Shown here piece after piece: positions 4,038-63,195 of a DNA stretch of 64,000 nucleotides (its first letter is position 1; each line of letters starts with the position of its first letter). The DNA is from Pocillopora damicornis (lineage: Eukaryota): positions 1 to 64,000 of the forward strand of contig NW_020846522.1 of assembly GCF_003704095.1 (NCBI RefSeq). The letters run 5' to 3'. Under the pieces are notes generated by a model, which saw only the letters and a program-made list of their open reading frames with translations, made no database searches and was not told the origin of the DNA. The translations under genes and the position numbers were made by a program.

Positions 4038-4652
4038 CTAACCGAAAAACTGCATCCAGTTATACTGTTTATAACTAGATGCACTGCTTGATGTCTCGCT
4101 GGTGCTGGACATGTTTTTCTGCATTTTAGCCTCACCTTGCATTATTTTCATGTACAACCCTTTGCTTGCCTCTGGGAGAGAGTTTTGAGCGCAGTGTACG
4201 TGCATGCCTGGAGGAAAAAAGTCTGGAAATGCCATCTGATTGTTACCTTTGTCGCGCGAGGTAACAGATAAATTGCGCTTGAGATTTCGTTTAAAATAAG
4301 TGGAAGTATTCTCTGTATTTTCTCGATGTTTCTGCTGCTGTCTCTGCGTATTACTTAATCCCCAATATTCTTCTTCAGGAACATTTATATTAACTTGGAA
4401 GCTTTTGTCCTCACTGTGGTGAGGTAGGATTCCTAATATTCCAGACGAGATATTTTGTTTTGGTCTAGCATCTGAAACAGTTTCTTCACAATCTTCGTCG
4501 ATCTCATAAATTGGTGGCAAATGTTTCGGAGAATTCCTTTTTCGTGTAAGAGAAGGTAATTTTGCGCTTCGTAAGTTTCTTTTGGCGTTCCTGCTGGACT
4601 CCTGACGATAAATGGTCATATTAATGAATTTCCTTCCCTTTCTGTGGAACAT
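4038..4652 (-). CDS. Motif-family member A (204 aa, uncharacterised, probably disordered)
   Basis: ATG-initiated ORF containing KHLPPIYEIDEDCEE (LxxIxE at 4503-4520), QMAFPDFFPP and terminal NWMQFFG*. TATAAA on the minus strand at 4896-4901. Confidence 0.85.
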   Translation of the reverse strand: MFHRKGRKFINMTIYRQESSRNAKRNLRSAKLPSLTRKRNSPKHLPPIYEIDEDCEETVSDARPKQNISSGILGILPHHSEDKSFQVNINVPEEEYWGLSNTQRQQQKHRENTENTSTYFKRNLKRNLSVTSRDKGNNQMAFPDFFPPGMHVHCAQNSLPEASKGLYMKIMQGEAKMQKNMSSTSETSSSASSYKQYNWMQFFG

Positions 4653-7600
4653 AACGCTTGTAAAAAGTCATCGTTGTACTTGATAATTATCTTCGTGTTT
4701 CAATCGATTCACGTGAAATCGTCAGATGTTCCTCGTGAAGGTGTTTTGATTACAGCTTGAAATCATCGAGCAACACTCCACTCTGAAATAAGCAAACTCA
4801 TCAAGCAGGAAAAAAAGAAGTCCGTTTCGGTGATTCCACGATTTTCATGGCAAGCGTAAATCAAGTTTACCCCAATTAGCTGAAATATGTGTTTCTTTAT
4901 AGCAACTAGAACAGATTTACGCTAAGTTACCTGCCCACGTTTGATCCAGCGAGTTTAAAAATAACCCATATCCGCCAACTTGTTGTTCTAAGCGAGGTGC
5001 GAATGTCTTTGTGATTGGTTCCGCCAAAACTTGTTTTCTAGCTTTCCGAAGATAACTAAATGCATGTCACGTCTCTCAAATCGCTTTTTTTTCCCTAAAG
5101 CAAGGGCTGTTTGGTTTCCGAAGACGCCGAAAATTAATTCAGCTATCGACAAAAAAGCTTTTCACAACTACGCTGTTTTCTTTATTGACCCAAAAATCTA
5201 ATTTTGGCTTCTATTCAAATGGGATACTAGGAGGGGAAATATTGCTGTCATTTCATTTGTTTTAACGACGATAAATTTTTGAGAAGATAGCAAAACAGGT
5301 CTCATGCCTATTATAATCTCGACATTTGCGGGCTTATTTGAAAAGCAAAATGACAAGGGGTTTTTGAACGCTCCAATGCGAGCTCAGGTGCAGGCAGGTG
5401 GATAAGATAACCGCTGCGGGAAACCGAAATGCCTCAGGCTACAGAATAATAGTCAACTGTCAGAGCTCTGTAGATATACCCTCACAAGGCACCAAAGCAC
5501 GCACAGAAACGACATGCCTAATCCATTTAAATAAGATCATCCAATTTCCAAAAACGTTGAACTCTATCTTCTTAAAGTACATCTATTAATGTAGGTCACC
5601 GATACCATGCATGGGGCGTCTTATTTCTTTTTACCTTTGTTTTCTTATTTTAATTTTCAGTTCAGATCCATCACGTTTTCAAGATGGTGAAAATTAAATT
5701 TGATTGCATAACATATGAAACTGAAGACAACATTCGTTTTGAGTCGAACATTTGTTTTTAAAACTTCTGTTTGTCTACTACAGGTGCCAGTAGACATCGA
5801 GTTCTCCCGCTTTGCAGGCAATAAACTATACCATGTTCAAAAAAAAGTAAATTGAATTCAACGTTTCGTGATCAATTGATGACATTTTATTGTTGATATA
5901 TCGTATTTATGTACATTAGAATTTGCAGTTCCTCTGATTGGTTACAAAACCCATTGTTTATCACAGCAATGAAACATGGACGTATTAAATTTTAAAGGTG
6001 CATTAAATCTGCAGTACCTGTTTTATAAAGTAGGCTCCATATGTCATCTGAGATGATTCTCGTCGTCTGTTTTGTTCGATGACATTAATTCAGTAATTCT
6101 TTGAGTAGTATCATACTCCTGGAACGTTAACTGCTATGCATTAGACTCACACTCTTTACCTTCAACGCTGATTTACATAAAAAGGAAAATGATGATAAGC
6201 ACAATGCTTTGCTTCGTCTGATGGAACAAATCAGTCTGCTTAATTTTTCTTAGAAATAAAGAAAAATACAAAGGGGTTTATAAGTATTTATCACTGAAAA
6301 AATGGTGAAATTGACGATTAAATAATAAAGCAAGTAATAAAACAACAGTCTCTCGAACTACACTACAGCTTCAATCATAAAGGTTTTCATTGAAAGTCAA
6401 CCTTTCATTCTGTTCTTTCTATATTTTTCCGCGAATGATATGAGATTAAGAGAAATGGGCTATTATAATTTTTTACAACTTGAAGTGTGTTCTTGAGGAG
6501 TTGTTCACCAAACACAATACTAGTATTTTTATTCTTAATTTGGGTATGAGGAAATTTTTACATCAGGAAAGAAAGTGTTTCATGATTTATCTCTAACCGT
6601 AATCAAATCTTGCTCGATCCCATACGCTTCCCATTTTGCCTTCAGTCACCGTTTTTTCCCATAATCGAACATTCATTATATGAACGTTCGTCTTTGGCGG
6701 CTGTAGCAAGGCCTTTGACATTCACCAAGAGTGGACTATACATAACGAAATCATAGAAAAACAGGGAAAAACATTCGGTTATACACTTCGACTGCAAAAT
6801 GAACCAAAAAACCAAAAACCACTTTAAACTGTTCATTACCCTTGAAATACCTTGTAGCCACTGAATGAGAAAGAGCGACCTGGAGGTAAAAAGGGATTTT
6901 ACTGCATCTATTTTACCACACAGATCTGGAGATTTTAATATCAGTTTTCATTCACCTTGGTATAAGTTAGTATCAAGAGCAAAGGCTGTTCTTAAGGTGG
7001 TTATTTTTACCGAAATTTGTCTGCAGAAAATTGCTTTAGGGTGTGACATTTCAAAAATGACAAATTGGATAATTAGTGGTGTTATACTTTTATTCAATAA
7101 CACACAATACAATTTTGAATAAGTAAAGAGAATTATGTATTTTTCCAAGAAAATTTGGAAATCATCATTTTGGTAAACGTGAATCGCTAACTCCTGTACG
7201 TCATGATGACGTCAGAGGGAGCTCAATCAACAGAGAATGTTTCCTCTCTGATGAGGGCTCAGGATGTTAACCATCACGGAGGTGTTAACAAAGTCAAATT
7301 TAAAAAGAACTTGCAGATGTATTTGCTAATTTCAGCACTCTTAGAAGGCTGCTACGTGATCTCATTTAGATACCCAAAAACAAATTTTTAGAAAACCAAA
7401 AGCTTATGAATCCAATGCAATAATTCTTGCATTTTAAATTAAGTTTCACTTTTTTCAACAAATTAAATTAAGGCGTATACTTGATAGCAGTCAAGAATAC
7501 TTGATGATTCTAAATTGTTCAAAAAGAAATAAAGAAGAAGAGCTTTCTTACACAATTTATGAAATTAAAGACATGGATTTTAGGTTCACGAAAAACTTCT

Positions 7601-10352: not shown

Positions 10353-10850
10353 ATGGAAAAGCCAAGCCGTTTATTGCATAGAAGCAAACGCTGTCTACAG
10401 CCTCTGGCTACGATATCCGAAGACATCGGAGAGACCCGAAAAAGCAGAAGACGAGAGAATGAAATTTGCCAAGATTGCGCAGACACAAGGGTGAAGGAGT
10501 ACAATGAACTTTTGTACGAGAGCACTCACTGTCTTCACATCAAAACTTTACCAGAAGATACACAATTACAAACTGAACTTCGCACTGAACTGAACTTGAG
10601 AGAGTCAAGGCTAGTTGTTTCCAAGAATGGACATTCGAAGGACATAAATTTTGCTAAAAATCTTTTTCCGGAGTTCTTTCCCAGAGACCTAGAACAAGGA
10701 TATAATTCTCACAGTGGCTTATGGGCAGCAAAACTGACAATGGAGGAAGTATTTTCAGGACGGATTCGCAGTGCTCGTGTTTCAGAGAAACAAGGACTTA
10801 ATCAGGAAGCAAGCTTTGAATATTGGAAACAATATCAATTATCATTCTAA
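10353..10850 (+). CDS. Motif-family member B (165 aa from first ATG)
   Basis: The ORF track start at 10269 is TTG; the first ATG is 10353 (aaagcgATGG). Contains LQPLATISEDIGE (10404-10421), FAKNLFPEFFP, TMEEVFSGRI and terminal FEYWKQYQLSF*. TATAAAT at 10222-10228, AATAAA near 11151. Confidence 0.85.
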   Translation: MEKPSRLLHRSKRCLQPLATISEDIGETRKSRRRENEICQDCADTRVKEYNELLYESTHCLHIKTLPEDTQLQTELRTELNLRESRLVVSKNGHSKDINFAKNLFPEFFPRDLEQGYNSHSGLWAAKLTMEEVFSGRIRSARVSEKQGLNQEASFEYWKQYQLSF

Positions 10851-13039: not shown

Positions 13040-13567
13040 ATGAACCAAGCACCCGAGAATGAGTGCAGCCAAGGAGTATGCAAGGTGGCTAGAAGACCTA
13101 CTTCTCTACCGAGTCCATTCATACATACAAGGATGGAGATCAATCCAGCAGATTTGACGGCTGATCTTCAAGGAGTACAAGCTGCAGGGAATACGTTTGG
13201 CAACGAATCACGTCTAAAGTATGGCAAGCTCCTGATCCCAGGAGAGTGCAACAAAGAGGATCACAATGGAGCAGCAGAGAAAAGTTACCAGCGTAAAAGC
13301 TTGCTGAAGAGAAGAAGACATAGTGAGCCTCTTCACTCTGCTCATGCAGAAGTACAGCTCAATTCCACAGGAAGTTCTGCTGATTCTTCTGGATCAAGCC
13401 TATTGTTGGAAAACCACAAGACGAGAAACTTCCGCAAAAAAGATATTACAGCAGCTAAGGCATTTTTTCCCGACTTTTTCCCTCAACAACCCTTACGAGA
13501 CAGGTACGATTGCTTACATTCGCATCCAACCTTGGAACAGATTTTCTCAGGTCAGATTAAGTCTTAA
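13040..13567 (+). CDS. Motif-family member C (175 aa), paralogue of D
   Basis: ATG in ggagcgATG context. Contains DITAAKAFFPDFFPQQP and PTLEQIFSGQ, plus RRHSEP and RPTSLP sites. It lacks LxxIxE and the terminal W motif. Confidence 0.8.
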   Translation: MNQAPENECSQGVCKVARRPTSLPSPFIHTRMEINPADLTADLQGVQAAGNTFGNESRLKYGKLLIPGECNKEDHNGAAEKSYQRKSLLKRRRHSEPLHSAHAEVQLNSTGSSADSSGSSLLLENHKTRNFRKKDITAAKAFFPDFFPQQPLRDRYDCLHSHPTLEQIFSGQIKS

Positions 13568-14924
13568 CGATCTTGAGTACTAAGACACTAATGAAAAACT
13601 GTTCTGATAGGTGGTTTTTACAATCTAGATACTTTCAAACGTTTCCTAGAAACGATAAAGCTCTGAATGTGTAGAAAAACAAAGCAAATTAAAATTTGTA
13701 TAGCCTTACTTGAATTTAATATTTCAAGGATCTAATCACCAAGTGAACTTAGAACAGCATCCGTGCTATAAATATAACAGTTTATGCGAGATGTACACGT
13801 GACTCAGTGAAATCATCAGTTTATTATAAAGTGTATGGTGTTGATTAAAACTAGACTAAAAAATATTGAAAGGGAGAGTGGAGAGATATATGGTAGAAAG
13901 CTGAAGCTTCCTTTCCCTGAAACTACCTGTTTCTTTGACATTGTACTGGTATATAAAATTCTAGTATAAATACGAGAGGCGCAACTAAGCCGAGAGTAAA
14001 TTATTTCAGTACCCAGTGATTAGTTCAAAAACTCGGGTCGTCCTCTCAGCCAATCATATGCAACTTAAACTAATCGTGTTTTCCCGTGCTTCGAACAGCT
14101 ACTAGTTTTCAGTATTATCTCTTTGAGAGATTTCCCATTGTTTGGACGGGCTGTTTGTACCCTTCACTTTAAGTCTGGTTTATTCGGCGCTTTACATATT
14201 GGCTTGCTATTTTCGTTCTACTCATCGTTCTTTTTATACCTGAATTGAATTTTGCTTGGGACATCGAGACGATTTTTTCTTTAATTTTCCGGGAAGTTCA
14301 CCATTAGTTTTCGACCTTGTGAATTTGATCCAGTTTTTTTGCCTTCTGTTTAGATTCTTACCTGACACACTGATCGACATAAAGGCTTAAACAAATCACT
14401 TCTTCTTTTTCCCTTCCCGTGCCACCGAGCAAAGCAAAAACACCTCATGGGGAAACTTTGTTCCTTCTGCCCCTATATACCAGCATCCTATGAGCCCACA
14501 CACATTAGGAAATAGTGAAGCGCATAGTGTTATTCCGAAAATGTGNNNNNNNNNNNNNNNNNNNNNNNNNNNNNNNNNNNNNNNNNNNNNNNNNNNNNNN
14601 NNNNNNNNNNNNNNNNNNNNNNNNNNNNNNNNNNNNNNNNNNNNNNNNNNNNNNNNNNNNNNNNNNNNNNNNNNNNNNNNNNNNNNNNNNNNNNNNNNNN
14701 NNNNNNNNNNNNNNNNNNNNNNNNNNNNNNNNNNNNNNNNNNNNNNNNNNNNNNNNNNNNNNNNNNNNNNNNNNNNNNNNNNNNNNNNNNNNNNNNNNNN
14801 NNNNNNNATTCAACACAATAAATCAGATCTGCAGCAATTAAAATGATAAATGAGTCAAAGAGTTTAGCTCGACTGATTGTTTTCGAAAGGCAGACGGAAA
14901 CGTATGAATGAAATATCAGGTATT

Positions 14925-15858
14925 TACGAGTGCCATCTCGTATTTCTCATAAACTCTTTTTTCATCACCTCAACTGCACTTTTCACCACCTCAACTTTCC
15001 GGCACGGCTTTAATTTTCGGGCAAGACATTAAATTTCTAACACGACATAAATTTTCCGGCACGACTTTTTCTGGCTAGACATTTAACTTTTTCCACCTGA
15101 AGACTCAACACAAGAATCAAGGCGGCCGGTCACCGCTGGTCGATCGCAATGCACTTACTGTAACACTGTTTGGTAAAAACTAAGAATGAATTTGCAATTG
15201 GGCAAAGCTAAATTGGATAAGTTTACTCGATCGAATTTTTGCTTAGTGTGCTTGTCTTGCACTCAATTGCAAGGAAATAAATCAGTTTTCAATTAAGGAT
15301 AAAACACTTGCGTTGACTTGAGTTAGCCTGGTTCTCTGTATCGCTAATGTACTGAGTAGAAGTAAATTCAGACATGGCCAACTCGCTTGTCAACATCTGC
15401 ATGATTTTGTTTAAACCTGTTCCTACTGATTAGAATAACCGCTTTGTCTTTGTTTCTTTTTGAACCGTCACAAAACTGCTCTACTTATGGCCTTATATGT
15501 TAACACAAAACAATTTGATTGTTAACGTCTCCACCAAAGCCTATTGCCCTTAAAAAAAGGTGACATTCAATCTTAAAGTAAACATTTGTAGGTACTGTTG
15601 AATAACAGACCAGAGAAAGTCGGAAAAAAAGTCCTGCCGGAAAATTGAAGTCGTGCGGGAAAGTTAAAGTCGTGCCGGTAACTTAAAGTCGTACCGGAAA
15701 GTTAAAGCAGCGCCGGAAAGTTATAGTAGTGCCGGAAAATTGAAGTCGTGTAGGAAAGTTGAAGTCGTACCGAGAAAAAACTGAGCTTGTGAAAAATAAA
15801 GTTGAGGTGGAGAAAAAAATTAATGAGAAATACGAGATGGCACTAACTCGGCTCCGTA
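14925..15858. mobile_element. Non-autonomous foldback/MITE-like DNA transposon with 6-bp TSD
   Basis: Inverted repeat gtgccatctcgtatttctcat (14930-14950) / atgagaaatacgagatggcac (15823-15843), termini tacg...cgta, flanking GGTATT at 14919-14924 and 15859-15864, and subterminal ~19-bp repeats (aaagtcgtgccggaaagtt-like) in opposite orientation on the two arms. Confidence 0.8.
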
Positions 15859-18019: not shown

Positions 18020-18589
18020 ATGTATCAGCTACCTAGAGATAAATACAGTCTTGGAGTATGCAAGGAGCTTGAAAGATCCAATTTTCTCTCAAGCACATTC
18101 AAACGTACGATGACGGAGACCAGCGCAGCAGAAATGGCCCCTGATATAGAAAAACAGGCAAGGAACATGTTTGGTAACCGCGAATCACGTTTGAAGCGAA
18201 GTAGGCTTATGATCGCAGAAGAGTGCGTCAATAACGATGACGATGGTGCAGCTTACACGCCTGAAGATTTGGTGACGAATAAAAGATTAAGTGAGCCTCT
18301 ACACTTTGCCCATGCAAAAGGACAGCTCACTTCCGCGAGAAGTTCTTATGTTTGCTTCGGAACTACTTGCCGACCGATGAAAAACATTATGCCGATAAAT
18401 TTGCATGTGAAAGACATCACAGCAGCTAAGGCATGTTTTCCCGACTTTTTCCCTCAACAACCTTCACGAACCAGTTACGATTCCCTACAATCGTATCCAA
18501 CCCTGGAAGACATTTTCTCAGGTCAGTTTCAAGTCTCAACAACCCTGAGTGATAGGACACAAACATTTCCAAGAAACAAATATATGTAA
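18020..18589 (+). CDS. Motif-family member D (189 aa from first ATG), paralogue of C
   Basis: The ORF track start at 17864 is TTG; the ATG at 18020 has the same ggagcgATG context as C. Contains DITAAKACFPDFFPQQP, PTLEDIFSGQ and SEPLH. DNA similarity to C extends several hundred bp upstream. Confidence 0.8.
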   Translation: MYQLPRDKYSLGVCKELERSNFLSSTFKRTMTETSAAEMAPDIEKQARNMFGNRESRLKRSRLMIAEECVNNDDDGAAYTPEDLVTNKRLSEPLHFAHAKGQLTSARSSYVCFGTTCRPMKNIMPINLHVKDITAAKACFPDFFPQQPSRTSYDSLQSYPTLEDIFSGQFQVSTTLSDRTQTFPRNKYM

Positions 18590-20757: not shown

Positions 20758-20842
20758 TGACGTGTGACCACGTAAAATGACGTGAATGACGTGAAATGAC
20801 GCGAAACTCGTAAAAGTTCAAGAAACCAACGTATTTCCTAGA
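20758..20842 (+). promoter_or_regulatory. Cluster of four TGACG half-sites plus TATA upstream of member E
   Basis: TGACG at 20758, 20778, 20787 and 20797; GTGACCACG at 20764-20772 (shared with C and D); TATATA at 20837-20842. Confidence 0.5.
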
Positions 20843-21045: not shown

Positions 21046-21426
21046 ATGACTCACTTTCAAGTGTGTTCTGGTTGTAGACGCAAGGCAAAAAACACACAGA
21101 AAACAGCAAATGATTTTGAAAAGGAGACCAACTCAGATCTCAAGAATACCCAACTTCTGCGTTCCACAGACATAAGTATTTGTCTCCAGATATCAGACGA
21201 AAAGAAAACCACCCTTAGCCACCCATCCAGATGGAGAGAACTTGATATGGCTTTGAAACTCTTACCAGAATTTCTTTCCCGACGCAGGAACCAAGAGACA
21301 AGTTTCCCATCTATAATCTTAACTAGTAATGAAGAAAAGGGTCCTATCGAGAAGCATCTTGAGAACTCTAAAGAAATACTCGAGTGGGTAAAACTTGAGT
21401 ATGGAATTCTTTCAAAGAGCTGTTGA
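21046..21426 (+). CDS. Motif-family member E (126 aa, divergent, possibly 5'-decayed)
   Basis: ELDMALKLLPEFLS is a central-motif variant and EILEWVKLEYG a terminal-motif variant. AATAAA near 21572. Confidence 0.65.
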   Translation: MTHFQVCSGCRRKAKNTQKTANDFEKETNSDLKNTQLLRSTDISICLQISDEKKTTLSHPSRWRELDMALKLLPEFLSRRRNQETSFPSIILTSNEEKGPIEKHLENSKEILEWVKLEYGILSKSC

Positions 21427-23406: not shown

Positions 23407-23880
23407 CTATCCAAAAAATTGAAGCCACGAAGCAACAATGTTTTCCTTGTTGTGGGAAAAATGTCCACCTCTCTTTGTATTTGACCGCGAAGAATTTCTC
23501 GCAGTCTTAGTGTCAAGGTCTATCTCGTTCCTATTGCGATCAGAAGGCCTAAAATCCGGAAATATATTCTGATCACTACAGGCTTTATAACTGTCCTTTA
23601 TCGCTGTTCCCTTTCTGAGTAATGCTTGTCTGTGAGTATTCTCAAGGCACGGTAGCACAGGCAGAATGAAAATATCATTGGGTTTGCTACACTCTCTAGA
23701 AACAGCTAAATCACCACAGGAGTGAACCCTTCGCTGGAATCTTCTGTGTGTTCCTTCGACCGGCCGGCCAAAAGGACATTCGTCGTCATCAAAATCCTCG
23801 TTATCTTCTCTCTTTTCCAAGATTGTACTTAAATGCCGAGTCATGTTTAATCGTGGTAAGAATGGTAGAGTTTGTTTCAT
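23407..23880 (-). CDS. Motif-family member F (157 aa from first ATG)
   Basis: The ORF track start at 24111 is TTG; the first ATG is 23880, downstream of TATAAATA (24003-24010, minus strand). Contains RHLSTILEKREDNEDFDDDE (23815-23832), QNIFPDFRP and terminal VASWLQFFG*. Confidence 0.85.
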   Translation of the reverse strand: MKQTLPFLPRLNMTRHLSTILEKREDNEDFDDDECPFGRPVEGTHRRFQRRVHSCGDLAVSRECSKPNDIFILPVLPCLENTHRQALLRKGTAIKDSYKACSDQNIFPDFRPSDRNRNEIDLDTKTARNSSRSNTKRGGHFSHNKENIVASWLQFFG

Positions 23881-25721
23881 GTTTTTGTCGATATAACCAC
23901 TGTTGTACCACGTCCTCGCCAGGATAGATTTCACTAAGAACCACCACTTCTTCTCTTTTACCTTGCTTTGTGAATCCGATCCTTTCCCCTCTATATGCGA
24001 GCTATTTATAACAGCGAGTTCTTTTGTCCAAAAATGACAACTCAAAGATGAATTATTATCCGCTGTTAACGTACGCCCTGACGGCAATTTCTTGTGTTCA
24101 AATTTCGTCAATCTTTCAAATACGTCGGATTAAAATCCGCACGCAATGTTACAAGTTTTATAGATTGCACCTGCGCTGTGGGCGAGCAAAACAAGTATTT
24201 GACGTGCGTGGGATTCTATCAACTTGTGTTATCAAACCAGAATTTCTAAAAATTAGATCCCAGTCAAACATGATACTCTTGCCAACGCAGTGTTCGGCTT
24301 TCATCAGCAATTTACCGGTTGAACTTTGTCAGGAGATTTATTTTTCCTGGTAACGAAATGCTCATTTTTTTCAAAACCTTTTTTGAGCAGCTGGGAAAAC
24401 AACAGTCAGGGTGTCCGTCATTGTGACGGCAATATTTACGCTAAATTTCTCATCTCTTTATCAAGAGGTGTCAAAATTTACATCTCTATGTCGTTTGCGA
24501 ATGAAAGATATATTTTAAGATTTACGCCCCTCTAATTTTCCAGCAAATATTTGGACTTTTCCCAAGTCTGTCTTAATACACGCACAAAAAGCATGTTTAA
24601 ATGAGTGACCTCGAAAGAGAGGTCGTGGGATTTTTTTTCTTAAGGCTATTTTAGGTTTTTTTTTTCTTATTTCAGAAAGATCGCTGAGTGTATAACTTCC
24701 AGACTCTTGACGCTAACTTTGTCTTAATAAACAGGAAAAAAAAATAAGTAGGGGGCTTCAACGCGAGGTCATAAATTTCTTTAAGATCGCCTCCAGACTT
24801 TCACAAGCGTAATCAAACTATTGGAATTACCTTAATTTATTCGCTACCAAAATGTTTATGACTTGGGTCACAGCCTTTAAAATAGTCGAAAAAATCATTT
24901 CTTGACCTTGGAGGGCGACGCAATGCTTCAAGATTTTCTCGATGTCTCCATTACCGGAAAATCACGACTAAACATGTCACTTGGCCCCGTTCATCATCAT
25001 CTTTGAACTCTAACGAGCTTTAGTTCACGCACGAAATCAACCGCACTCACAAAGGACAGTTGGACACAGCAGTGAAATAACTAATCTAGCTAATTTTCGA
25101 TATTTTCTAGTAATAAAAGATTCTCAAGCGCGGATTGAAAGGTCTTGTGGTGATAGAATACAGCGTGACGTGATTAAAAAAAATCTGAGAGCATCTATTT
25201 ATTCCACCCTGTTTACGGAAATGGCTCATCTAATCAGAGAAACATCCACAGGCAGCAACAAACCTACAGATTTTTTACTCAGAATCAGTTTTAAGTTTAT
25301 CTTATGCGCAAGGAAGACAAGAAAAAGTTAGAATAAAAAATAACTAACGTGAGGTAGACATGCACAATGTTGAACGCGAGGCGAAATAGAAGATGAAAAC
25401 TTCTCTTCCGCCATAAGCAGCACTAACACGTGCGGGGGCTGGGTTACTCAATAGCGATTTGTTCTCCATACTGTCGCTGTTTTTCAGGAACATCTTTATT
25501 CATTTTTTTTTTCACTTGGCTTCTTTAAAGTGATTTGAACGAAGGATGTTGGCAGAATTGCACATAATTCACATTAGCCTCGACCAGCTACGTTTTCCTT
25601 CGGCAAGACAGATACAGTAATGCCTTGTGGCTATCCATTAAGACCATGTATGGCCTTCAGAGAAAGACTTCAGTGCCATTCGGGTAAGTTACCGCTTGAC
25701 TTTAGGCAATCCAGTGAAAAT

Positions 25722-26909
25722 GACAAGTATTTGGTCCTGTTCTTGGTTTTTTGTTTTGTCTTTTAGTTTCGTTTTGAATGATTTAATGCAAAGAATACCA
25801 CCCACATAATAACCCTTATGGTCAAAACGCATATTTCTTTTTATGCTGAGCACTCAAAGGGCAAATGGTATAAAGTTTCCTCGGCAGATTATTAAAAGTA
25901 AAATTTTTTCATTTACAATAATAAAGAAACTTGCGTCTTGTAATATTGGTAGCTATTCGTTCTGCCAAATTACCATATATGGTCTTCAGAGGAAGACTTC
26001 AGTGCTATAAATGTTATATAAATCACGTTCCGAGAAATTCCAGAACAAAGTGTATATTAAATCAACTATTGCATTGAAAAAACAGCGTTGGTGTTTTATC
26101 AGTGGTACACTCTCTAATGGACCCTCACAGCAGCACTCAGGGGATGACGTCAATAACATTTTCACTAAAAATAGTCTTCATATTACTGACGTAGTTTCGA
26201 AGATGCTCGTGGGCACGCTTTGATAAAGTAAACCAAAAAATAAAGCAAATGAAAAGAAGTGCCATGTGGGTTATGTTCATGAGGCATCAGAGATATACTC
26301 GGAAAATGAAAAAAGGGTTGCTTCGCTCAGAACACGATGCCTAGTGAAAAAATTAATTATTTCATAACCACTTCAACGCCGACGAAGGCAACTCTTCTAT
26401 ATGCTGAACTTAATTCTCTACATGCTGAACTTAAAATTATCGGAAGTCAAAAACTCTTCCGAGAGTTTTTATTCCACACTTTGTGCCAAAAATCATTAGT
26501 TCCAAGTTTTATTTCTTTTGGAAGCTTTAGTATCTGATACCTTTTATAAAACACGAAGCCTATTCCGCCTCAGAAAACTTAATCGACATTGCTCATTTAT
26601 CGAATTTGGAAACGTACGATATATCAATCAAAACGAAACGAGCTTTAAGTTATTGACTGCTCGGCGTAACAAACATCCTGCGGAGATCCATAATGAAAAA
26701 TATATGAGTAGATGTTTTACGCATTCGGTTTAGTTACAGATTAAGTTTAGACAATCCTGTTAGAGTGGCAAGAATTTGGTCCTGTTCTTGTTTTTTTCCT
26801 TGTCTTTTAGAATTGTTTTGAATGATTTAATGCACAGAATGCCACCACATAATAACCTTTATAGTCGAAACGCAAATGCTCAGCACTCAAAGAGCAAAGG
26901 GTATAAAGT
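25722..26909 (+). repeat. Pair of ~150-bp diverged direct repeats (25722-25876 and 26766-26909)
   Basis: Both contain tttggtcctgttcttg...ttttgaatgatttaatgca.agaat...cacataataacc...gcactcaaag.gcaaa.ggtataaagt. Confidence 0.75.
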
Positions 26910-30366: not shown

Positions 30367-30687
30367 TCATGCCTTGGTAAGGCCAAAGTACATCATCCAA
30401 GATTCCTTGATTTTTTCCACTTCAGACCGGCCTTTTTCTTCGTTCTCCCAAGAATAATATTTTCTTATGTCTGTGCCTTTAGAAGGATCGAACTTTTCAT
30501 CATTCATAGTTTTCTTCGTCATCTCGTCAGGCGGGAAAAAGTCTGGAAGTATTTTGGAACCTTTGCGACGAAATACCTCCCGACGTTTCTGTGTGCGCTC
30601 AGAGCGACTTAATCTACGTTTACTGCGGCTGCTGTAAGACGAAACCAGAGGAACATAGGAGATCTTTTGTGTCACGGACGATTCCAT
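30367..30687 (-). CDS. Motif-family member G (106 aa), paralogue of H
   Basis: KGSKILPDFFPP, YSWENEEKGRSE and IKESWMMYFG. An in-frame upstream relic reads HHLSAILS. Confidence 0.8.
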   Translation of the reverse strand: MESSVTQKISYVPLVSSYSSRSKRRLSRSERTQKRREVFRRKGSKILPDFFPPDEMTKKTMNDEKFDPSKGTDIRKYYSWENEEKGRSEVEKIKESWMMYFGLTKA

Positions 30688-32983
30688 GTCTTCTTTTCTC
30701 GATGTATGGCGTTGTGTTCTCTCTGGACTTCTACGCCACTCAAAAGATGTGTGTGAAAGAATTGCACTGAGGTGATGTGCAAAACTCTAGAGCCTTTGTG
30801 GCACGAACGAAGGCGATGCTCTTGAGACTCTTGAGCACAAACTTGTTATATCTGTTCTCTTATCTGATTGCTGTGAGTAGATTTACTGTGATTTGATCCC
30901 ATTGGTTGAAACTGAGAAAACTCCGATGTAAATAAGCACAACTTTACATATTTCGTGCCGTTTTGACGATCAGCCAGACGGCTAAAGAAAATGAAATTGA
31001 CAGAGGGTGCCACCTTGACAGCTTTACCCTTTTAAAAAAAGGGCCAAATGCAGCGCTTAAAAACTGCTGCACATATTTTTTTAACAACTCTCTTCGAATT
31101 CGAATTGGCGAGAAAACAAACCGTAGTTTTTCAACTAGAACAGCTATTTCTTAAACATTTTTTAAGAATTTTTCTTCGCAGCCTTTAAAAATGTTTTTTG
31201 ACTTTGTTGTGATAATCTTCTGTCTGATTTTGGTGTTTTATAGTCATTCTGTTCTCCATCATTATCACTCACGGCATGTATAAAGTCTGAAGAATCATGT
31301 TAAGNNNNNNNNNNNNNNNNNNNNNNNNNNNNNNNNNNNNNNNNNNNNNNNNNNNNNNNNNNNNNNNNNNNNNNNNNNNNNNNNNNNNNNNNNNNNNNNN
31401 NNNNNNNNNNNNNNNNNNNNNNNNNNNNNNNNNNNNNNNNNNNNNNNNNNNNNNNNNNNNNNNNNNNNNNNNNNNNNNNNNNNNNNNNNNNNNNNNNNNN
31501 NNNNNNNNNNNNNNNNNNNNNNNNNNNNNNNNNNNNNNNNNNNNNNNNNNNNNNNNNNNNNNNNNNNNNNNNNNNNNNNNNNNNNNNNNNNNNNNNNNNN
31601 NNNNNNNNNNNNNNNNNNNNNNNNNNNNNNNNNNNNNNNNNNNNNNNNNNNNNNNNNNNNNNNNNNNNNNNNNNNNNNNNNNNNNNNNNNNNNNNNNNNN
31701 NNNNNNNNNNNNNNNNNNNNNNNNNNNNNNNNNNNNNNNNNNNNNNNNNNNNNNNNNNNNNTTTAGTCGCTATCAGTTGTGTTGTGAAGTTATCCATTAA
31801 GGATGTCGAACAGATCGCCTGCTATACCATTGATATTCGTCAAGCGATGAGGTTGAGTGATTTACACGTTTCTGTTTAAGTGCCGTGATGGATCGCTGCA
31901 ATTCGTGCGTTTTAGCACACTGTCATTAGTGCGTTTCAAAAGCACAACTGCCAGTTAGTAATAAAAGCGGATCTATGGGAGAAGGACATCAATTTTTTGA
32001 CATAACAATAACGACTGAGTTTTGATTCTTCAATGCTTTTACGATAACAACTTCATATCGTGAAACGATAGACGAGAAATTCATTAACCAGCATCTAAAA
32101 CTTTAATCAATTTATCAAGTTATTTTTTTCCCTCACTGAAAATTTATGCGAGACTCTAACATCAAAGTTACCGAGTAATCCAGTCAACTTGGCCTATGTA
32201 GCCGGAAACAATGATCTTACAGACTTATTGGGATTCTAAAGGAAATGCATGCTGTAATTGATGTGCGTATTCAAACCCAGCTTTTGCGTATTTGAGGTTA
32301 GCGCTATCAAATATTTTCAGGTCGGGGAAAGGTTAGAAATCTCTGATACATTAAATCTCTTTGGCTTTAGAGCCACGCATCGCTTGAACCAGCGAACGAC
32401 AGTTGTGATTTTGCAGTTGCCTCTCAGTCGTTTCTGCAATACTGTGAACATATTTGCATTTTTTTGAGTGGGAGATATTTTCCAATTTCGACAATCTATA
32501 TAAGCGATTGGGAAGAAACTGCGAAAGTCAGAAGTAAAATTTGGCGATCACGTTTATTATATATTAAAATGAACTTAATCATGGTTTGACCATGATACGA
32601 TAGGCCATTAGGTTTGGAAGACAATGTTATCAATCAAAGTTGTAGTCGATATTTTCAGATTCTATAATCGAAGCACGTATCTCTGATAAATTATGATAGG
32701 AAATAAGTACTGCTTTGCTTTTGAACATAGTTTATGTGGTAAAATCAAGGTATTGGTTCAGTCAGTCATCATTATGAATGGAAAAGCCTTCATGAAAAAA
32801 TCCAAAGTATGGTAAATCAAAATCCTAAGTAACTTCATAAATCATTTGCATATATTCGTATTGATGCTGAATTATGGCGTTCAGTGACAACATACAACAA
32901 CAGAGAAATCAGATTCATATCCGTTTTCTAGCTTACAAGAGTCAAACATAGAAATAGAATTGTATTAATGCATGTTTTTAACA

Positions 32984-33331
32984 TCATAAACGGGCTGAAA
33001 TTCTCACATCGAGGCCATCGAAACCATAATACATCAGCCACGATTCAGCAATAGTTTGGGCCTCAGAGAAACCGTTCTCTTCATTTTCCCACGAGTACTG
33101 CTTTATCACTGTAACTCTTTTGACAGCAGAAAGACCTGTTTGTTGTCTTAAACTTTTCTTTTGCGTGGTGTTTGGTGGGAAAAAATCTGGAAGTATTTTG
33201 GAACCCTTTTGCCAACTCATCTCGGCTAGACTTCTGCGTGGTGTCTTTTTATCAAATTGTAGTTTTTCTTTGGCGATGGTGGGTGATACCAAATGGGTTT
33301 GGAGAACGTTCTGCATTGCAGATATATCCAT
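32984..33331 (-). CDS. Motif-family member H (115 aa from first ATG), paralogue of G
   Basis: KGSKILPDFFPP, YSWENEENGFSE and IAESWLMYYG. The track start at 33367 is GTG; the first ATG is 33331. TATAAA on the minus strand at 33599-33604. Confidence 0.8.
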   Translation of the reverse strand: MDISAMQNVLQTHLVSPTIAKEKLQFDKKTPRRSLAEMSWQKGSKILPDFFPPNTTQKKSLRQQTGLSAVKRVTVIKQYSWENEENGFSEAQTIAESWLMYYGFDGLDVRISARL

Positions 33332-37358: not shown

Positions 37359-37850
37359 TTATCCAAACTGAAACTCAATCCAAGCAGCTATCTCGCTTAG
37401 CTTTAGTGCTTGAGTGTCTGTGCTTATCAGTTTTACTTGTGCCTTCTTGGTTGAAGGCAAAATTCGACTGTGTATAAAAGACGTGTTCGTGCTCTCTACT
37501 GGGCGAAAGTTGACATAAGGAGTTCTTAAAAAATTATTCCATCCGTCTTGGATTTGCTGGTATGGAAGTGATGCCTGAGGTTTCATCAGCGACGGAATGA
37601 TACTTCGCCCATGTCTTTCCGCCATCCTGAGCTTAGAAACTTTCATCGTAGTAAAAGAGGGTGATGAAACATTCTCTTCAGATCGGACTCCGTCGACCCC
37701 TTGCTGCTTTTCTTCAACTTCAGTAAGACTTTTATTTGATTCCTTCTATTCAGTGGCCTCGAGAACAATTGGAAGTCGACGCGAATGAGTGAAATTCACT
37801 GAACGAATCGGTGAATAACCTCTGTGTTTAGATCCCGTAAATCGGCACAT
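37359..37850 (-). pseudogene. Motif-family member I, interrupted by one in-frame TAG
   Basis: The ATG at 37850 reads MCRFTGSKHRGYSPIRSVNFTHSRRLPIVLEATE* (TAG at 37746-37748). The same frame then runs open into ORF 37359..37646 (PYVNFRP, EIAAWIEFQFG*). Confidence 0.7.
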
Positions 37851-41632: not shown

Positions 41633-42172
41633 ATGAGGGAAATGCTGAAAAAATCAAACTATATTCGCTCCAGAAGGCTAAATACAATAATCGAAATAGC
41701 GGAGACACAGGACGAAAATGAGAATTCGTTAGCGGTCTCGATTCCGGTGAAAGAACAAATTTCAAGTGGTGCCTGTACTGCAGCAAGAACACTGAGTAAA
41801 ATTCCTCTAGCAGAAAGATCTGTTGCACGTAGCCCCCGCGTAGAACAAGTCGTTTCCTCCCACGCAACGCCAGAAACACAGTTATCCACGACATCACATT
41901 GGCGGGAAAAACCGAAAGTATCAACAAAACCCACGGGTATGGACAAAAACTCAAATACTGACGCTTTGACGCTGAAATCTCCGGCGGTCAGAAAAGATAT
42001 TTCCGAAGTTGAGTTTTTTTTTCCTGAATTCTTTAAAAACAGCGAGGCGCAATGCGTTCCCGAAAAGATTAAGAATGCTCACAAGGAAGCTAATCAATAC
42101 ATTAAGAGCCAGAGCGACGATCCGTTCGTCCAGTCCTGGCTGGATTTGTTTGGGCCGCAAGTTTATGGTTAG
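41633..42172 (+). CDS. Motif-family member J (179 aa from first ATG)
   Basis: RRLNTIIEIAETQDENE (41678-41695), DISEVEFFFPEFF and DDPFVQSWLDLFG. TATATATA at 41527-41534. Confidence 0.87.
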   Translation: MREMLKKSNYIRSRRLNTIIEIAETQDENENSLAVSIPVKEQISSGACTAARTLSKIPLAERSVARSPRVEQVVSSHATPETQLSTTSHWREKPKVSTKPTGMDKNSNTDALTLKSPAVRKDISEVEFFFPEFFKNSEAQCVPEKIKNAHKEANQYIKSQSDDPFVQSWLDLFGPQVYG

Positions 42173-42179
42173 AGCCAGA

Positions 42180-45898: not shown

Positions 45899-46324
45899 TC
45901 ATTTTATTATTTGATGCCCAAAAAGCTTCATCCAAGCGTTGAAAACCGGATCCGCTTGATACTTAAGCGGGAAGAAGCATTCTTGCTGATGATAATCCTT
46001 TATTTCTTCGTGAGGGAAGAAGTCGGGAAATAGACCTTTCGCGATAGAGAACGTCACAATTCTAACATCAGTTGGATCATGACAACTTTTTCGTCTCTCT
46101 CCGTAATCAGCTGATTTGGATTTTCCAGCCAAAGCTAATTTCCTTGGACGGCAAAGCTTCGTTAATTCTGTGGTTCCGTTAATTTTAAGCCTTGGGTGCC
46201 GCAATTGTGGTTTTTCGTATAACAGAGCCAAACACTTTTCTTCGCAGACAATACACAATGTGTCGTCCTCGCAGGGCAATTTTGGGTGAAGGTAGCAAAA
46301 TCTCCGGCGGGTAAGCGCTTGCAT
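45899..46324 (-). CDS. Motif-family member K (141 aa from first ATG)
   Basis: DTLCIVCEE (46241-46258), RRKS, SIAKGLFPDFFP and ADPVFNAWMKLFG. TATAATATA on the minus strand at 46387-46395. Confidence 0.83.
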   Translation of the reverse strand: MQALTRRRFCYLHPKLPCEDDTLCIVCEEKCLALLYEKPQLRHPRLKINGTTELTKLCRPRKLALAGKSKSADYGERRKSCHDPTDVRIVTFSIAKGLFPDFFPHEEIKDYHQQECFFPLKYQADPVFNAWMKLFGHQIIK

Positions 46325-48739: not shown

Positions 48740-50016
48740 AATGAATGACTAGCCAGTAATCGGATCCTTGCGTTTGCGCAAAGATTTCTGGGATCACCGC
48801 AAAGCAAACAAAGTTGTTTCGACGTCCAAAAAAGATTGTAGAGAGAAATCATCGCTTTTCCGCCGCAGTTTATCATAGATGCATTAAAATAAAGTTGAAA
48901 CGAGGGAGGTGTGAGCTTTCGATAGAATTACCGCGAAATATACTATAAAATATACCGATAAACTTTCCTCCTTGCGTATGATACATTGTGAAATCTCAAC
49001 AAATTACAAATTTAGCCAGAAATTGCTAGGAAATTACTCTTTTAAGTCTTGACAGTTGTATTTATGTAGGTACAACATGTTTCATACTTGTTCACGTATT
49101 GAAAGAACAAATTACGACGTCTGAAAATATTCCTCCTCAAAGGAGAGAAGTCGTTGTAAGCGGATATGGAAATTGTTTTTACCAAGCTGTTGCTCTTTGG
49201 AAGGATGAAATAAGCGATGAAAGACATGAGGAAATTCCTAGGTCAAGTGATAGTTTGTTTTGAATAGTTTTGTTTGAAGTATCCAGTGGCCTTGGCATGA
49301 GGTTTTTGAGCTACCGCTTTTTTCCTTGAAGGATCTTGTCAGGAAAGGCAAGATCACGGGAACTCCGACAGAAACTGTGGACATATCATCAGTTGTGCAT
49401 CGCTCTTTAAGCGATCCATTTGTACCTACACTGTACTCATCGTCGCAGTATTGAGCCGATTACCAACGCCGGTTCGTTCTCACTGATCACAATGATATGG
49501 GAATGTAGGTGTTTAACCGCTTAAATGTATCACGATAATATTTAATGCTCGAACAAACCATTTCTCCTGCTGTCCTGAGGTAGCTGTTGTAGCGCTCTCT
49601 TGTATTACCAAGCCAAGGAAAAAGCTAGAAGTAGACTTAACACTCGTCAAAAAAACTGAAAAGGCTCTATTGAGTAATTTCTTGGCGATTTATGGCCAAT
49701 ATTTCAAAATTTCAAGATAAAAGATCATTTCAAGATAAATCTTGCGCATGGATAAAAGATAATCGGCAGAGTTTACAAAAAAATGCATGGTTGTTCAAAC
49801 AAAAACTTACGCTTCCCAAGTATCAACGTTACTCAAATCCATTTGTGATAAAAGAGCTGCGAAAAAGCGATAAGCTCTCTCCAAAATCGTTTTTATGGAC
49901 GTCGAAACAACCTTTCGCCATACATTTTTTTCTAGCGAGTTGCAATGTTTGCCCCGTGGCGATCCCAGAAATCTCTGCGTAAGCACAAGGATCCGATCAC
50001 TGGCAACTCATTCATT
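48740..50016. mobile_element. Decayed element with long imperfect inverted repeats (48740-48881 / 49840-50016)
   Basis: The reverse complement of the left arm matches the right arm (ggacgtcgaaacaac, gatcccagaaatct, caaggatccgat, tcattcatt). The arms enclose an OTU-like fragment. Confidence 0.6.
49132..49570 (+). pseudogene. Frameshifted OTU-like cysteine protease fragment
   Basis: REVVVSGYGNCFYQAVA resembles the OTU Cys-loop D-G-N-C-x-F/Y-x-A (Cys codon 49174-49176). GTPTETVDI and CASLFKRSICTY follow across frameshifts, then a His-loop-like NHF at 49556-49564. Confidence 0.65.
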
Positions 50017-51490
50017 CCGTGCCGGAAAACCCAAGGACCGCTGATATACAAAGAGTGAGGGTGAGCCTGACTTTTATCTGAAACCCATCATCAATACGTG
50101 ACGAGTGAAACTTTCTAAAACAGGAACGTGATTCGTGAATTTAGAAATGCGTGTAAAGCGTGAATTGACTCCTGCGAGTTTCGTGACCTAGATCTAATTT
50201 TCTGTAGTTTCGTGAAAACCGCCAGATTCTCCAGTGATAACTGCTCACATTTATTACTCTGAATGATTTGCTCAGAAAAATCGCTTCTAAATACGGTTCC
50301 AAACAATCAAGAACGTGATTAGTAATGAGATGATCTCTTTTTGGTGTGACCTTATCGTGGTCTTTTTTAGCTCGTGCAAACGAGTTTTTATCGGGGACTC
50401 CGATATGTAAATGAGTCACTCCCACCACTCACAAAGCCACTAAGATGTGGACACTGTGGTAATTGGTCGTCCCAAACTGAATTCACCCGTGCATGAAACC
50501 AAATTGGAGTAGTATTTGCGCTTAAAACGATAGAGGCTTTGTTACAGTTTTTGCTTAGCATCGTTGCTTAAAATGTCACTTTCCAAATGAACAAAAATTT
50601 AATGAGTTCAGCCACAAACCTATTACAGTGAATCGCTTCGATTGTTTATGATCTGATGTAAAACGAGAACTGTGATTAAGTTCAATTATCTTATGTGAAT
50701 ATAGGCGACTTGATCGCTCAGAAGCGGACAAGAATAATCATGTGCTTTTTCCTCATGCTTTTCGGCCTTTCTTGTGAAATTTATTGTCGCGTATCTTTAA
50801 TTTCTATAAGTCAAAAAAACTTGCGGTCACAAAAAAATGCGTTCTGAGGTATTTTCGTTCCGAGACAGACAGCTTAAGGTTTATTATCAGAAGCAAGCAG
50901 GAAATTGTGAGGCAAAACGTGTCATTAGAATGGAAAATAGTGGAATTTGACATGTGCAGGCGAAGGAAGATTTGGATTGTAGCTTCTAAATTTTTATATG
51001 CGTTTACAATTATTCTGCAGAGTTGGATGATTACCATAATTGTGGAAATTTCCGTGATTTTCTGGAAGCTAGGATTTTGAGGCTGTAGCAACCTTGCATT
51101 GCTGCAAGACCAAACATTACAAGTTCACAACCAAACGTCATCTATAGATTAAGCACTTTATGTTCGAGTTGGCAATAGGAATTCTTTGAATTGATCTGGC
51201 TACTAACAGCTGCTAAGACACTCGAAAACGTTTCGTGTTCTTTCCTCTGCTTGGTTTAGAACAGATCAAGCACCAACAAGGCCTCTCTTATTGTTGATTC
51301 TTGCACAGGATAATTTTATTTCAATGGAATCTTATAAATTGGGGCTCAAGGACAATACGCACACTCCACGGCAGATAAAACGTGCAAATTTTTAAAGCTG
51401 AAATTAATGATAAATGAAACTTATCATATTTCCTTTTCATAGAGAAGCAATTACTGATGGAAACTGAAAAAACCTGACAAACCCAGGGAA

Positions 51491-52217
51491 TAGTATACTT
51501 AGGGTACAGGGTAAATGTGTCCCAGGGTCAACTTGCTATTGGCCAGCAATGAACAAACTATAACGTTAGCATGGTTACGCCTTACCCTATAGGGTATATA
51601 GTATATTTAGGGTACAGGGTAAACGTGTCCCAGTGTCAACTTGCTAATGGCCAGCAATGAACAAACTATAACGTTCGCATGGTTACGCCTTACCCTATAG
51701 GGTATATAATACATTTAGGGTACAGGGTAAACGTGTCCCAGCGTCAACTTGCTAACGGCCAGCAATGAACAAACTATAACGTTCGCATGGTTACGCCTTA
51801 CCCTATAGGGTATATAGTACTTTTAGGGTACCGGGTAAATCTCCCAGTTTCAACTTGCTATTGGCCAATAATGAACAAATTATAACGTTAGCATGGTTAC
51901 GCTTTACCCTATAGGATATATGGTATATTTAGGGTACAAGGTAAATCTCCCAGTATCAACTTGCTAACGGCCAACAATGAACAAACTATAACGTTCGCAT
52001 GGTTACGCCTTACCCTATAGAGTTATAGTATATTTAGGGTACAGGGTAAATCTCTCAGTGTCAACTTGCTATCGGCCGATAATGAAAAAAGTATAACGTT
52101 GGCATGGTTACGCCTTACCCTATAGAATATATAGTATATTTAAGGTACAAGGTAAATCTCTCAGTGTCAACTTGCTAACGGCCAACAATAAACAAACTAT
52201 ATCGTTGGTATGGTTAC
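51491..52217. repeat. Tandem array, 106-108 bp unit, about 6.8 copies
   Basis: Unit agggtacagggtaaa...tcaacttgcta..ggcca.caatgaacaaactataacgtt.gcatggttacgccttaccctataggg, with starts near 51501, 51609, 51717, 51825, 51931, 52036 and 52142. Confidence 0.95.
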
Positions 52218-56873: not shown

Positions 56874-57863
56874 GATGTACCTTGCATTTTGAAAGAAACA
56901 AAAATTCCTTGCCTGAGTAGGAATACTGCCGGGGAAGACTCGGCTAGTGGTCGTGTGCTAAGCCAGTGAATGGGTAAACTAAATTAGCGAAAAAACACAG
57001 AAACTTAAGTCTTCTTTATCTTGTTATAAAACGAATTTACGACTTGGCATTTCAGAATCCTGAGTGAAATCTGACTTCGAATCTTCTTCTCTTAGTACAA
57101 AGTCCGAAAAAAAAGTTTATTGCTAACAGGGATTTTGTTTACCCTTTTAACCCTCAAGATCTTCCTGTTAATTCTTATGATCTGTTTTCTGGGTTATGTA
57201 TGGATATTAAAGGGAGAAGTAACATGTTAATCTCTTCAGGGGATTAAAGAGTTTAAAGTCTTGCTCACTCCTCTCTATCACGCACACGTAGTACGCCCGC
57301 TCAATGTACAATTCACGTTTTGAATAATATTTTAGTCAAAAGATGTCTTGCATTCCACGTTGCGATGCCACCTGTTCTAAGCAATAATTTCGATTAATGT
57401 CTAGACAGGTCTCGCCTCTTTCTTCAGTAGTAATAAAAACGAAGTAATTTTGCGACGATTATTCCAGTTTTATCAAGACTCCGTCCCACTAAGCCGTGTT
57501 CTCAGTTCTCAAGAGTAGCTTTAGCCATTTGCTGCGGTAAGTTTTCTATGTACTTTCCCCCTGTAGGTTTTAATATGGTTTCTTAGAAATTCCTTATAGT
57601 TGTTTGGGGGTGAATCTTTTCCTTTGGATAGACACGAGTGATTGGAGAAGTAATGCATTCTCAATGTTTAAATCGTACATGGGTTTAACTCGTAATATTT
57701 GTATTTCCGGTACCGCTCACCCCAACTTAAGGAAAAGATTTAATCTTGGAGGTTCAACTAAAAAAAAACTATATCTTTTCCTACATTTCAGCTTTAAGCA
57801 GAATTAAGGCCATTTTACAAGACATCAGCACCCTGCAAGGAAACACAGACATCAACACGTGAA

Positions 57864-58136
57864 ATGGAAAGGGCGCCGGTAACTTGTCACGTGCAAGTGG
57901 GCTTTACAGAACAGCTATCACAAAAAACCGATCAGCTTAAAAGTCACCAAAAAGCGAATAGTCAGCAGAGTCAAGTCGAAAGGCTTTTTCCAGAATTTTT
58001 CTCCGGTTGCAACGAACCACGTTTCAAAGAAATGTGCAAAGACAAGGCTCACACACATTTGAAGGCGGAACAAGGGTTCGACCCGCTGATTCAATCGTGG
58101 TTAAGCTTATATGGAGGAAGCGCATGCGTCCATTAG
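57864..58136 (+). CDS. Motif-family member L (90 aa, no N-terminal motif)
   Basis: SQVERLFPEFFSG and FDPLIQSWLSLYGG. The frame is open upstream to 57798, with possible splice acceptors near 57791 and 57801. Confidence 0.78.
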   Translation: MERAPVTCHVQVGFTEQLSQKTDQLKSHQKANSQQSQVERLFPEFFSGCNEPRFKEMCKDKAHTHLKAEQGFDPLIQSWLSLYGGSACVH

Positions 58137-62673: not shown

Positions 62674-63195
62674 ATGGAAAGGATAACCAAAAGAGCTCCT
62701 CTCGTCCGACTCGACACGATCGAGGAAACATCAGAACCAGAAGAGAGCAGCAATTATTGTTTGGATTCAGCGCTGCCACGAAAACAATTTGGAAGATCCC
62801 TTGATTTTTCAACTCTAAGGAGAAAAAGAATTGGCTCTCATCACACCAGACGAGTACGCAATAAAACTGACATGGAACATGATCATTCGATTTCTCAGGA
62901 ATGTACTGGTGAACCTACAAAAACAATAAAGACTGGAGAAGGGACAAGATCTCACAAAGGAAAAAACCGCAATGTTAAAAAGAGACAAACAGACAACATT
63001 AATTCACCGGACATGACACAAGTTAAAATGCTCTTCCCAGACTTTTTCCCGAAGAGTTCCATTACTCAAATGAGATGGCAAAGTGAATTGGCTGGCACTA
63101 ATTATCAAAACTACAGAAACCTGCGAAAGAGAAAGGAAGAGGATCCTCTGATTCATTCTTGGCTAAACTTATTTGGCGCTCGTGCTATATTTTAG
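62674..63195 (+). CDS. Motif-family member M (173 aa)
   Basis: PLVRLDTIEETSEPEE (62710-62727), DMTQVKMLFPDFFP and EEDPLIHSWLNLFG. Confidence 0.88.
   Translation: MERITKRAPLVRLDTIEETSEPEESSNYCLDSALPRKQFGRSLDFSTLRRKRIGSHHTRRVRNKTDMEHDHSISQECTGEPTKTIKTGEGTRSHKGKNRNVKKRQTDNINSPDMTQVKMLFPDFFPKSSITQMRWQSELAGTNYQNYRNLRKRKEEDPLIHSWLNLFGARAIF

Follow-up and report, generated by a model that had tools for sequence, protein, structure and literature searches.

Ligands of the B56 subunit of the phosphatase PP2A share the docking consensus [LMFI]xx[ILV]xE, with leucine preferred at position 1, isoleucine preferred at position 4, and an invariant glutamate at position 6 (PMC10970375). Affinity rises where positions 2, 7, 8, and 9 are acidic or phosphorylated (PMC10970375; PMC5586252), a lysine at position -1 touches B56 (PMC4930772), and a subset of ligands carries a basic patch no more than about 15 residues upstream of LxxIxE (PMC7108865). 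The B56 groove, whose residues are conserved among the human isoforms, lies far from the catalytic subunit, and the enzyme therefore stays active with a ligand docked (PMC4930772). In the case of BubR1, at kinetochores, and of the Ebola nucleoprotein, on VP30 (PMC10970375), B56 is docked and a second protein is presented to it for dephosphorylation. Here we describe a family of small proteins from the coral Pocillopora damicornis for which we propose the same principle, with the difference that its scaffold role, unlike that of BubR1 and the Ebola nucleoprotein, is one that we infer. Thirteen related paralogues of 90-193 aa, named A to M, each a single open reading frame (ORF), stand in tandem on both strands of a 64-kb stretch of DNA (positions 1 to 64,000 of contig NW_020846522.1, assembly GCF_003704095.1; hereafter, the window). 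Five of them, A, B, F, J, and M, very probably dock on PP2A-B56, as judged from their sequences and those of their homologues.

Three short motifs, joined by linkers that do not align, make up the pattern of the family: motif 1, a basic patch followed by LxxIxE and an acidic tail; motif 2, FP[DE]F ending a short helix, 76-114 residues after motif 1 in the window; and motif 3, [DE][PN]xxxSWLx[LF]FG, a C-terminal amphipathic helix (the W helix) 31-63 residues past motif 2. In placing LxxIxE in a disordered region with acidic residues downstream, the family resembles KIF4A, RepoMan, NHS, and AIM1, as well as BubR1, RacGAP1/Cyk4, FoxO3, and GEF-H1, and it shares with the first four a basic patch no more than about 15 residues upstream (PMC7108865); RHLSTI.E of paralogue F is close to KRLSTIDE of RacGAP1. 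Those ligands are large and have folded domains of their own, whereas the coral proteins are 90-200 aa long, have no folded domain, come in 13 tandem copies, and carry the motif variably. No homology of the coral family to any of those ligands was detected in Pfam and PDB sequence searches.

The initial annotation of this DNA had read seven N-terminal hexamers as B56 docking sites, and all seven, with the residues quoted after them, lie exactly where it had placed them. The best-scoring candidate is LDTIEE of M, followed by TSE (62710-62727, + strand, residue 13; N=4). LPPIYE of A, followed by IDE (4520-4503, - strand, residue 34, or 45 from the first ATG), and LNTIIE of J, followed by IAE (41678-41695, +, residue 16), are strong candidates, and LATISE of B, followed by DIG (10404-10421, +, residue 18), is a good one. 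LSTILE of F, followed by KRE and an acidic run (23832-23815, -, residue 17), is invariant among homologues, but in the window itself it does not satisfy the charge rule of Wu et al. 2017 (N=0), which looks for acidic or S/T residues at positions 2, 7, 8, and 9. These five have isoleucine at position 4, and the other two have valine: LPIVLE of I, followed by ATE and a stop (37775-37758, -, residue 26), is doubtful, and LCIVCE of K, followed by EKC (46258-46241, -, residue 23), is weak. Altogether, the charge rule is passed by A, B, I, J, and M and failed by F and K.

The pattern L..[IV].E occurs within the first 55 aa of 7 of the 13 paralogues, compared to a mean of 0.33 in shuffles, and none of 20,000 shuffles reached 5. 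The strict form L..I.E was found in 5 of 13 paralogues versus 0.19 in shuffles and the broad form [LMFI]..[IVL].E in 7 versus 1.55, with 9 of 20,000 shuffles reaching 7; no L..[IV].E match falls within the first 55 residues of C, D, E, G, H, or L. Given the relatedness of the paralogues and a pattern picked after the fact, tests of homologues and context weigh more than these shuffles. The window holds 49 six-frame matches to the pattern, 7 in the family and 42 elsewhere, and the combination of basic upstream sequence (net charge of at least 3), at least two acidic residues downstream, and T or P at position 3 is present in 5/7 of the former versus 0/42 of the latter. The earlier remark that the hexamer usually follows a basic patch was borne out in six of seven cases (upstream net charge of at least +3) and fails in K, where the upstream segment is acidic (net -1). 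A chance origin of the LxxIxE matches was rejected on the basis of the shuffles, the six-frame context, and a test with held-out homologues given below.

Homologues were retrieved by word-seeded searches, which returned 12, 36, and 35 proteins, and by an exhaustive HMMER search, which returned 38; removal of near-identical Pocillopora alleles and of P0197, an unrelated 803-aa repeat protein that was a false positive and was excluded before all counts, left 98. Exact look-ups found 9 of 10 window proteins in the protein collection, two of them in clusters that include uncharacterised proteins of Pocillopora verrucosa and P. meandrina. The named records are all from stony corals: Desmophyllum pertusum, which is a non-symbiotic deep-water coral, Porites lobata, Oculina patagonica, and Pocillopora. 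L..[IV].E stands ahead of the core in 87 of the 98 homologues, or 86 when an intact core is also required. By best-matching paralogue, the motif is present in 6/6 A-type, 2/2 B-type, 27/28 F-type, 12/12 J-type, and 38/41 M-type homologues, and in 0/4 C-type, 1/1 D-type, 0/1 E-type, 1/2 K-type, and 0/1 L-type homologues; one J-type sequence is frameshifted further down, which leaves 11 when an intact core is required. None of the 98 is of G, H, or I type. Lack of conservation of L, I, and E across orthologues, which the initial annotation had named as a result that would speak against docking, is not what was found, as the motif is kept in 85 of 89 homologues assigned to A, B, F, J, or M, and the four misses, of F and M type, are N-terminally short.

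When a profile lacking the motif region was used, 66 of 73 held-out hits were recovered at E<1e-3, and the motif was present in 61 of those 66, in a test that is blind to motif-less relatives never retrieved. The charge rule is passed by 83 of 87 homologue motifs. In the F-type alignment (26 rows, 29-84% identical to the Pocillopora copy, with the truncated P0173 and P0192 outside it), R, L, S, T, I, and E are each present in 26/26 rows, and position 5 is variable. Across 66 aligned sequences, the near-invariant columns are only L13, E18, F121, P122, F124, W163, F167, and G168.

We then consider what the constancy of motif 1 reflects, using a non-redundant set of 57 sequences of less than 60% identity (the 13 window proteins and 44 homologues). 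Its 44 motif copies have T at position 3 in 35 cases and P in 5, and D/E at position 9 in 75%; over positions -10 to -1, K/R make up 11-64% and D/E at most 5%. Motif 1 might be kept for a reason other than B56, as the target of a basophilic kinase (R three residues before T3 or S2) or as the ligand of a different binding domain, and the placement of R at -2 in 24/44 and at -1 in 15/44 copies, together with a T at position 3 that is tighter than the LxxIxE definition requires (35/44), would be in keeping with this. However, validated B56 ligands likewise have a basic residue at -1 and T or P at position 3, the latter being seen in RacGAP1 (LSTIDE), FoxO3 (MQTIQE), and BubR1 (LSPIIE) (PMC8809670; PMC10970375). 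A kinase site is an unlikely cause of the conservation, since A-type proteins have P-P at positions 2-3 and so no S/T acceptor, yet retain L, I, and E together with the acidic tail, and it would leave the invariant E6 with its acidic position 9 unexplained. Overall, we consider such another function quite unlikely.

The docking claim of the initial annotation is well supported by sequence in the lineages of A, B, F, J, and M, doubtful for I, and unsupported for K. Extended to the family as a whole it does not hold, as six of the 13 paralogues are without the motif; B56 docking is for this reason a module of part of the family rather than its defining feature. LCIVCE of K, with acidic residues upstream and V at position 4, is probably not a functional B56 site by the sequence comparison: it fails the charge rule, is not conserved in register, as a Desmophyllum K-type cluster has MLRVVD in the aligned stretch with the match one residue out of register, and is absent in one of two K-type homologues (P0205). 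Paralogue I is probably a pseudogene or null allele because of an in-frame TAG (37748-37746) three codons after LPIVLE, a degenerate core (VNFRP), and the longest branch in the tree (4.68). A second LxxVxE, LTEVEE (37727-37710, -), lies just past this stop, with no ATG between the two. Upstream of the G ATG, an in-frame HLSAILS (~30772-30755, -), with no ATG upstream in frame, resembles HLSTILE of F and may be a decayed motif 1. D has only a degenerate LMIAEE; its counterpart in the sole D-type homologue, LMIVLE, does not pass the charge rule.

In the same 57 sequences, motif 2 is present in all 57 (F4 in 56/57, P2 in 55/57), while 50 carry motif 3 and 44 carry motif 1; as counted there, FP[DE]F and the C-terminal SWLxLFG helix, rather than LxxIxE, are the near-universal signatures of the family. 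AlphaFold gave no global fold for J (8 rows, pTM 0.20) or M (66 rows, pTM 0.21) and in both modelled motif 1 as coil, with short helices at motifs 2 and 3; in M, residues 11-20, the motif-1 block, are coil at pLDDT 85. FoldIndex values range from -0.22 to +0.04 and are negative in 7 of the 13 window proteins, and the proteins, which are small, are predicted to be largely disordered. Small, disordered, single-ORF proteins in multiple copies, with high-scoring motifs in A and M, might be expected of competitive inhibitors, that is, induced proteins that fill the B56 groove and displace substrates, and tandem LxxIxE peptides do serve as B56 inhibitors (PMC10970375). A sponge of this kind would need only motif 1, yet motifs 2 (57/57) and 3 (50/57) are more universal and six paralogues are without motif 1, and we regard it as highly improbable.

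Several identities for motifs 2 and 3 were tried and rejected. Likeness to p27 Kip1, TPX2, Myc boxes 0/I, PAM2, and membrane-targeting helices had no Pfam support; TPX2 occupies Y, F, and W pockets on Aurora A. The AGC-kinase PIF docking motif, Fxx[FWY][S/T/D/E][FY], which we take to include a D/E variant, matched 0/57 sequences, and PP4-type FxxP is found from the second F onward in only 12/57, being possible in A, F, G, and H types only. The definitions of FxxP and of the S/T form of PIF are those of PMC8786283.

The history of motif 1 was traced on a tree of the C-terminal region only (55 rows, 83 columns, two N-terminally short rows of the 57 being left out), in which 18 of 52 inner branches are unresolved, six branches are long, and there is no outgroup. 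The tree splits A/F/G/H/I from B/C/D/E/J/K/L/M with support of 99/96, motif 1 occurs in both deep clades, and its presence needs five changes. By itself the tree does not separate gain from loss; its simplest reading is an ancestor that already had the B56 motif, with several later losses.

We propose, with a probability of roughly one in two, that the cluster encodes small disordered adaptors that bring PP2A-B56 to a common partner. Motif 1 would dock in the B56 groove, its basic patch lying against the acidic patch of B56, and motifs 2 and 3 would bind a second partner or surface. The B56 groove is presumably conserved beyond the human isoforms. A, B, F, J, and M would tether PP2A-B56 to the second partner, favouring local dephosphorylation, while C, D, E, G, H, L, and probably K, having lost motif 1, would occupy the same partner without the phosphatase. 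A bolder version, in which the cluster evolved in stony corals as a dedicated push-pull system, with all paralogues gripping one conserved signalling protein via FP[DE]F and the W helix, some delivering PP2A-B56, and the repeated motif-losers shielding that protein from the phosphatase, is speculative and on balance unlikely; if true, paralogue expression would set target phosphorylation by cell type or stress.

The proteins might instead be substrates, with B56 docking controlling their own phosphosites and through these their stability, location, or partner access. RRxx[S/T] is found in 19 of the 57 non-redundant sequences versus 8.3 expected, RRVxSCxD hardly varies among F-type homologues (R 26/26, S 26/26), RRx[ST]EPL is kept in C/D-type proteins, and a tuning role for motif 1 would readily account for its loss in several lineages. 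On the other hand, no such site is common to the whole family, the enrichment partly reflects shared F-lineage ancestry, and in both deep clades motif 1 varies no more than the core motifs do; we regard the substrate explanation as a less likely candidate. Some extra motifs are specific to single lineages: C and D carry RRxSEPL and J-type homologues RSSSEP, all of which are presumably basophilic kinase or 14-3-3-like sites, and the F lineage has, besides RRVxSCxD (residues 50-58), PFLPRL (residues 6-11) and LPPL (residues 73-76). At the C terminus of F (23407-23445, -), NKENIV lies just ahead of the W helix, with K, E, and N in 24-25 of 26 F-type homologues; it matches what we take to be a KEN-box-type degron and may be only the helix cap.

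Several points weigh against the adaptor proposal and the docking step within it. LxxIxE matches are common in proteomes, occurring in hundreds of human proteins (PMC5586252). While 25 of 27 F-type motifs pass the charge rule, the failures are the window copy itself (with its allele) and one close relative. The six motif-less paralogues seem retained, and the motif is present in 0/4 C-type homologues; this retention implies that the family can act without B56. Motif-less relatives are also under-counted, because the first retrieval used motif-containing profiles. Finally, no partner of motif 2 or 3 was identified, and a literature search for coral PP2A-B56 brought up no coral B56 paper.

Database searches gave no prior name to the family. 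No Pfam match above the curated cut-off was obtained for the 13 window proteins, the best Pfam E value for 30 alignment members was 0.026, and NCBIfam gave one match, far below the cut-off. PDB sequence searches returned chance-level rows or nothing; a motif-1 positive control was also blank, so these blanks are uninformative on motifs 2 and 3. Foldseek with the low-confidence M model gave one row (E 8.1), and the ESM Atlas gave no usable match for M and, for P0198, only unrelated plant clusters at 0.84. The proteins recall DEPP1/C10orf10 and IER3/IEX-1, which we take to be small, disordered vertebrate stress-response proteins, DEPP1 presumably with an N-terminal LxxIxE-like stretch and IER3 presumably tied to B56 regulation; no result supports this likeness. 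On present evidence these two are not relatives of the family, as neither the 13 window proteins nor the 30 alignment members matched Pfam DEPP or another family, and a literature search found no paper linking DEPP1 to B56. Full-text literature searches for the motif strings found unrelated papers only, and those for accession and locus identifiers found none; titles and abstract starts on coral PP2A-B56 and coral gene clusters held no description of the family, most subscription papers lying outside the search. The supplements of PMC13044578 could list genes of the cluster. The family is apparently an undescribed one with a conserved instance of a known docking motif.

The paralogues are arranged as follows. 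A (4038..4619, -) encodes 193 aa, or 204 aa from an upstream ATG at 4652; besides its B56-type motif it has FPDFFP at 4229-4212 and ends in WMQFFG and a stop, and the same MTIY start is found in two A-type homologues. B (10353..10850, +; 165 aa) has motif 1, FPEFFP at 10665, an internal EEVFSG element in common with C and D, and a variant C-terminal W helix. C (13040..13567, +; 175 aa), without LxxIxE, has FPDFFP at 13466 and ends in LEQIFSG in place of the W helix, and D (18020..18589, +; 189 aa) is a recent duplicate of C. Upstream of both lies a common element, TGACGTAA. In the P. meandrina gene model P0049 (CAH3041916.1), C and D are joined in one 361-aa protein; as both are complete ORFs with duplicated promoters in the window, this fusion is probably an annotation artefact. 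E (21046..21426, +; 126 aa) has no N-terminal motif and a divergent core (LPEFLS) and W helix. F (23407..23880, -; 157 aa) has motif 1, RRVHSC, LP.L, FPDFRP at 23562, and the C-terminal end KENIVASWLQFFG followed by a stop. G (30367..30687, -; 106 aa), with LPDFFP and the W helix, and its sister H (32984..33331, -; 115 aa) are without motif 1, and I, interrupted as described above, spans 37359..37850 (-).

J (41633..42172, +; 179 aa) has motif 1, FPEFFK at 42020, and DPFVQSWLDLFG; K (45899..46324, -; 141 aa) has FPDFFP at 46030 and DPVFNAWMKLFG; L (57864..58136, +; 90 aa), without motif 1, has FPEFFS and DPLIQSWLSLYG; and M (62674..63195, +; 173 aa) has motif 1, FPDFFP at 63034, and DPLIHSWLNLFG. 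Some L alleles (P0125, P0135) have a longer N-terminal extension, without LxxIxE, where the window shows a frame change and a stop (57660-57864). Identity to M is only 13-31% for most paralogues. A search of all six frames of the window with motif hidden Markov models found no fourteenth paralogue; a further one could be hidden or collapsed in the five assembly gaps (2202-2301, 2477-2722, 14546-14807, 31305-31761, and 39183-39316; 1,199 N in total).

As for noncoding sequence, elements resembling the cyclic AMP and hypoxia response elements were considered for the promoters and rejected: RCGTG and TGACG were at first about twofold enriched, and the enrichment was not upheld cluster-wide. RCGTG does not occur in more genes than expected (p=0.42), and with D removed, an unbiased scan of promoter 5-mers and 6-mers left no word after correction (512 or 2080 tests). 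No excess of AU-rich 3' elements was found. About 250 bp upstream of E, at 20770-20806, lies a tandem array of ACGTGAAATG (3.8 copies) with TGACGTG-like words. The window further contains a local duplication of ~1045 bp (25643-26877), a 106-bp minisatellite of 6.8 copies (51490-52217), and two elements bounded by inverted repeats (14929-15844 and 48740-50016, with arms of 35 and 71 nt), the first with internal 19-bp arrays; both are likely non-autonomous transposons.

In Pocillopora and Porites, tandem duplicates make up about a third of the genes, and their clusters reach 48-64 genes (PMC10236652), which makes the tandem arrangement seen here ordinary for corals. The amplified families named in that work are mostly immune-related and have known domains (PMC10236652), whereas the present family is without a known domain. 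Of the two genera, Porites belongs to the complex and Pocillopora to the robust corals (PMC10236652). Desmophyllum K-like and M-like genes bear locus tags two apart (OS493_027400 and OS493_027402), several A-, C-, F-, J-, and M-like proteins have longest contigs of identical length, and we infer that the cluster is old. What appears to be new is a tandem family of tiny proteins made from a B56 motif and two unassigned motifs, with repeated loss of the phosphatase motif. PP2A-B56 docking offers a specific, cheaply testable biochemical handle on an unannotated family of robust and complex corals and of Desmophyllum, and identifying what binds FP[DE]F and the W helix could define new short linear motifs.

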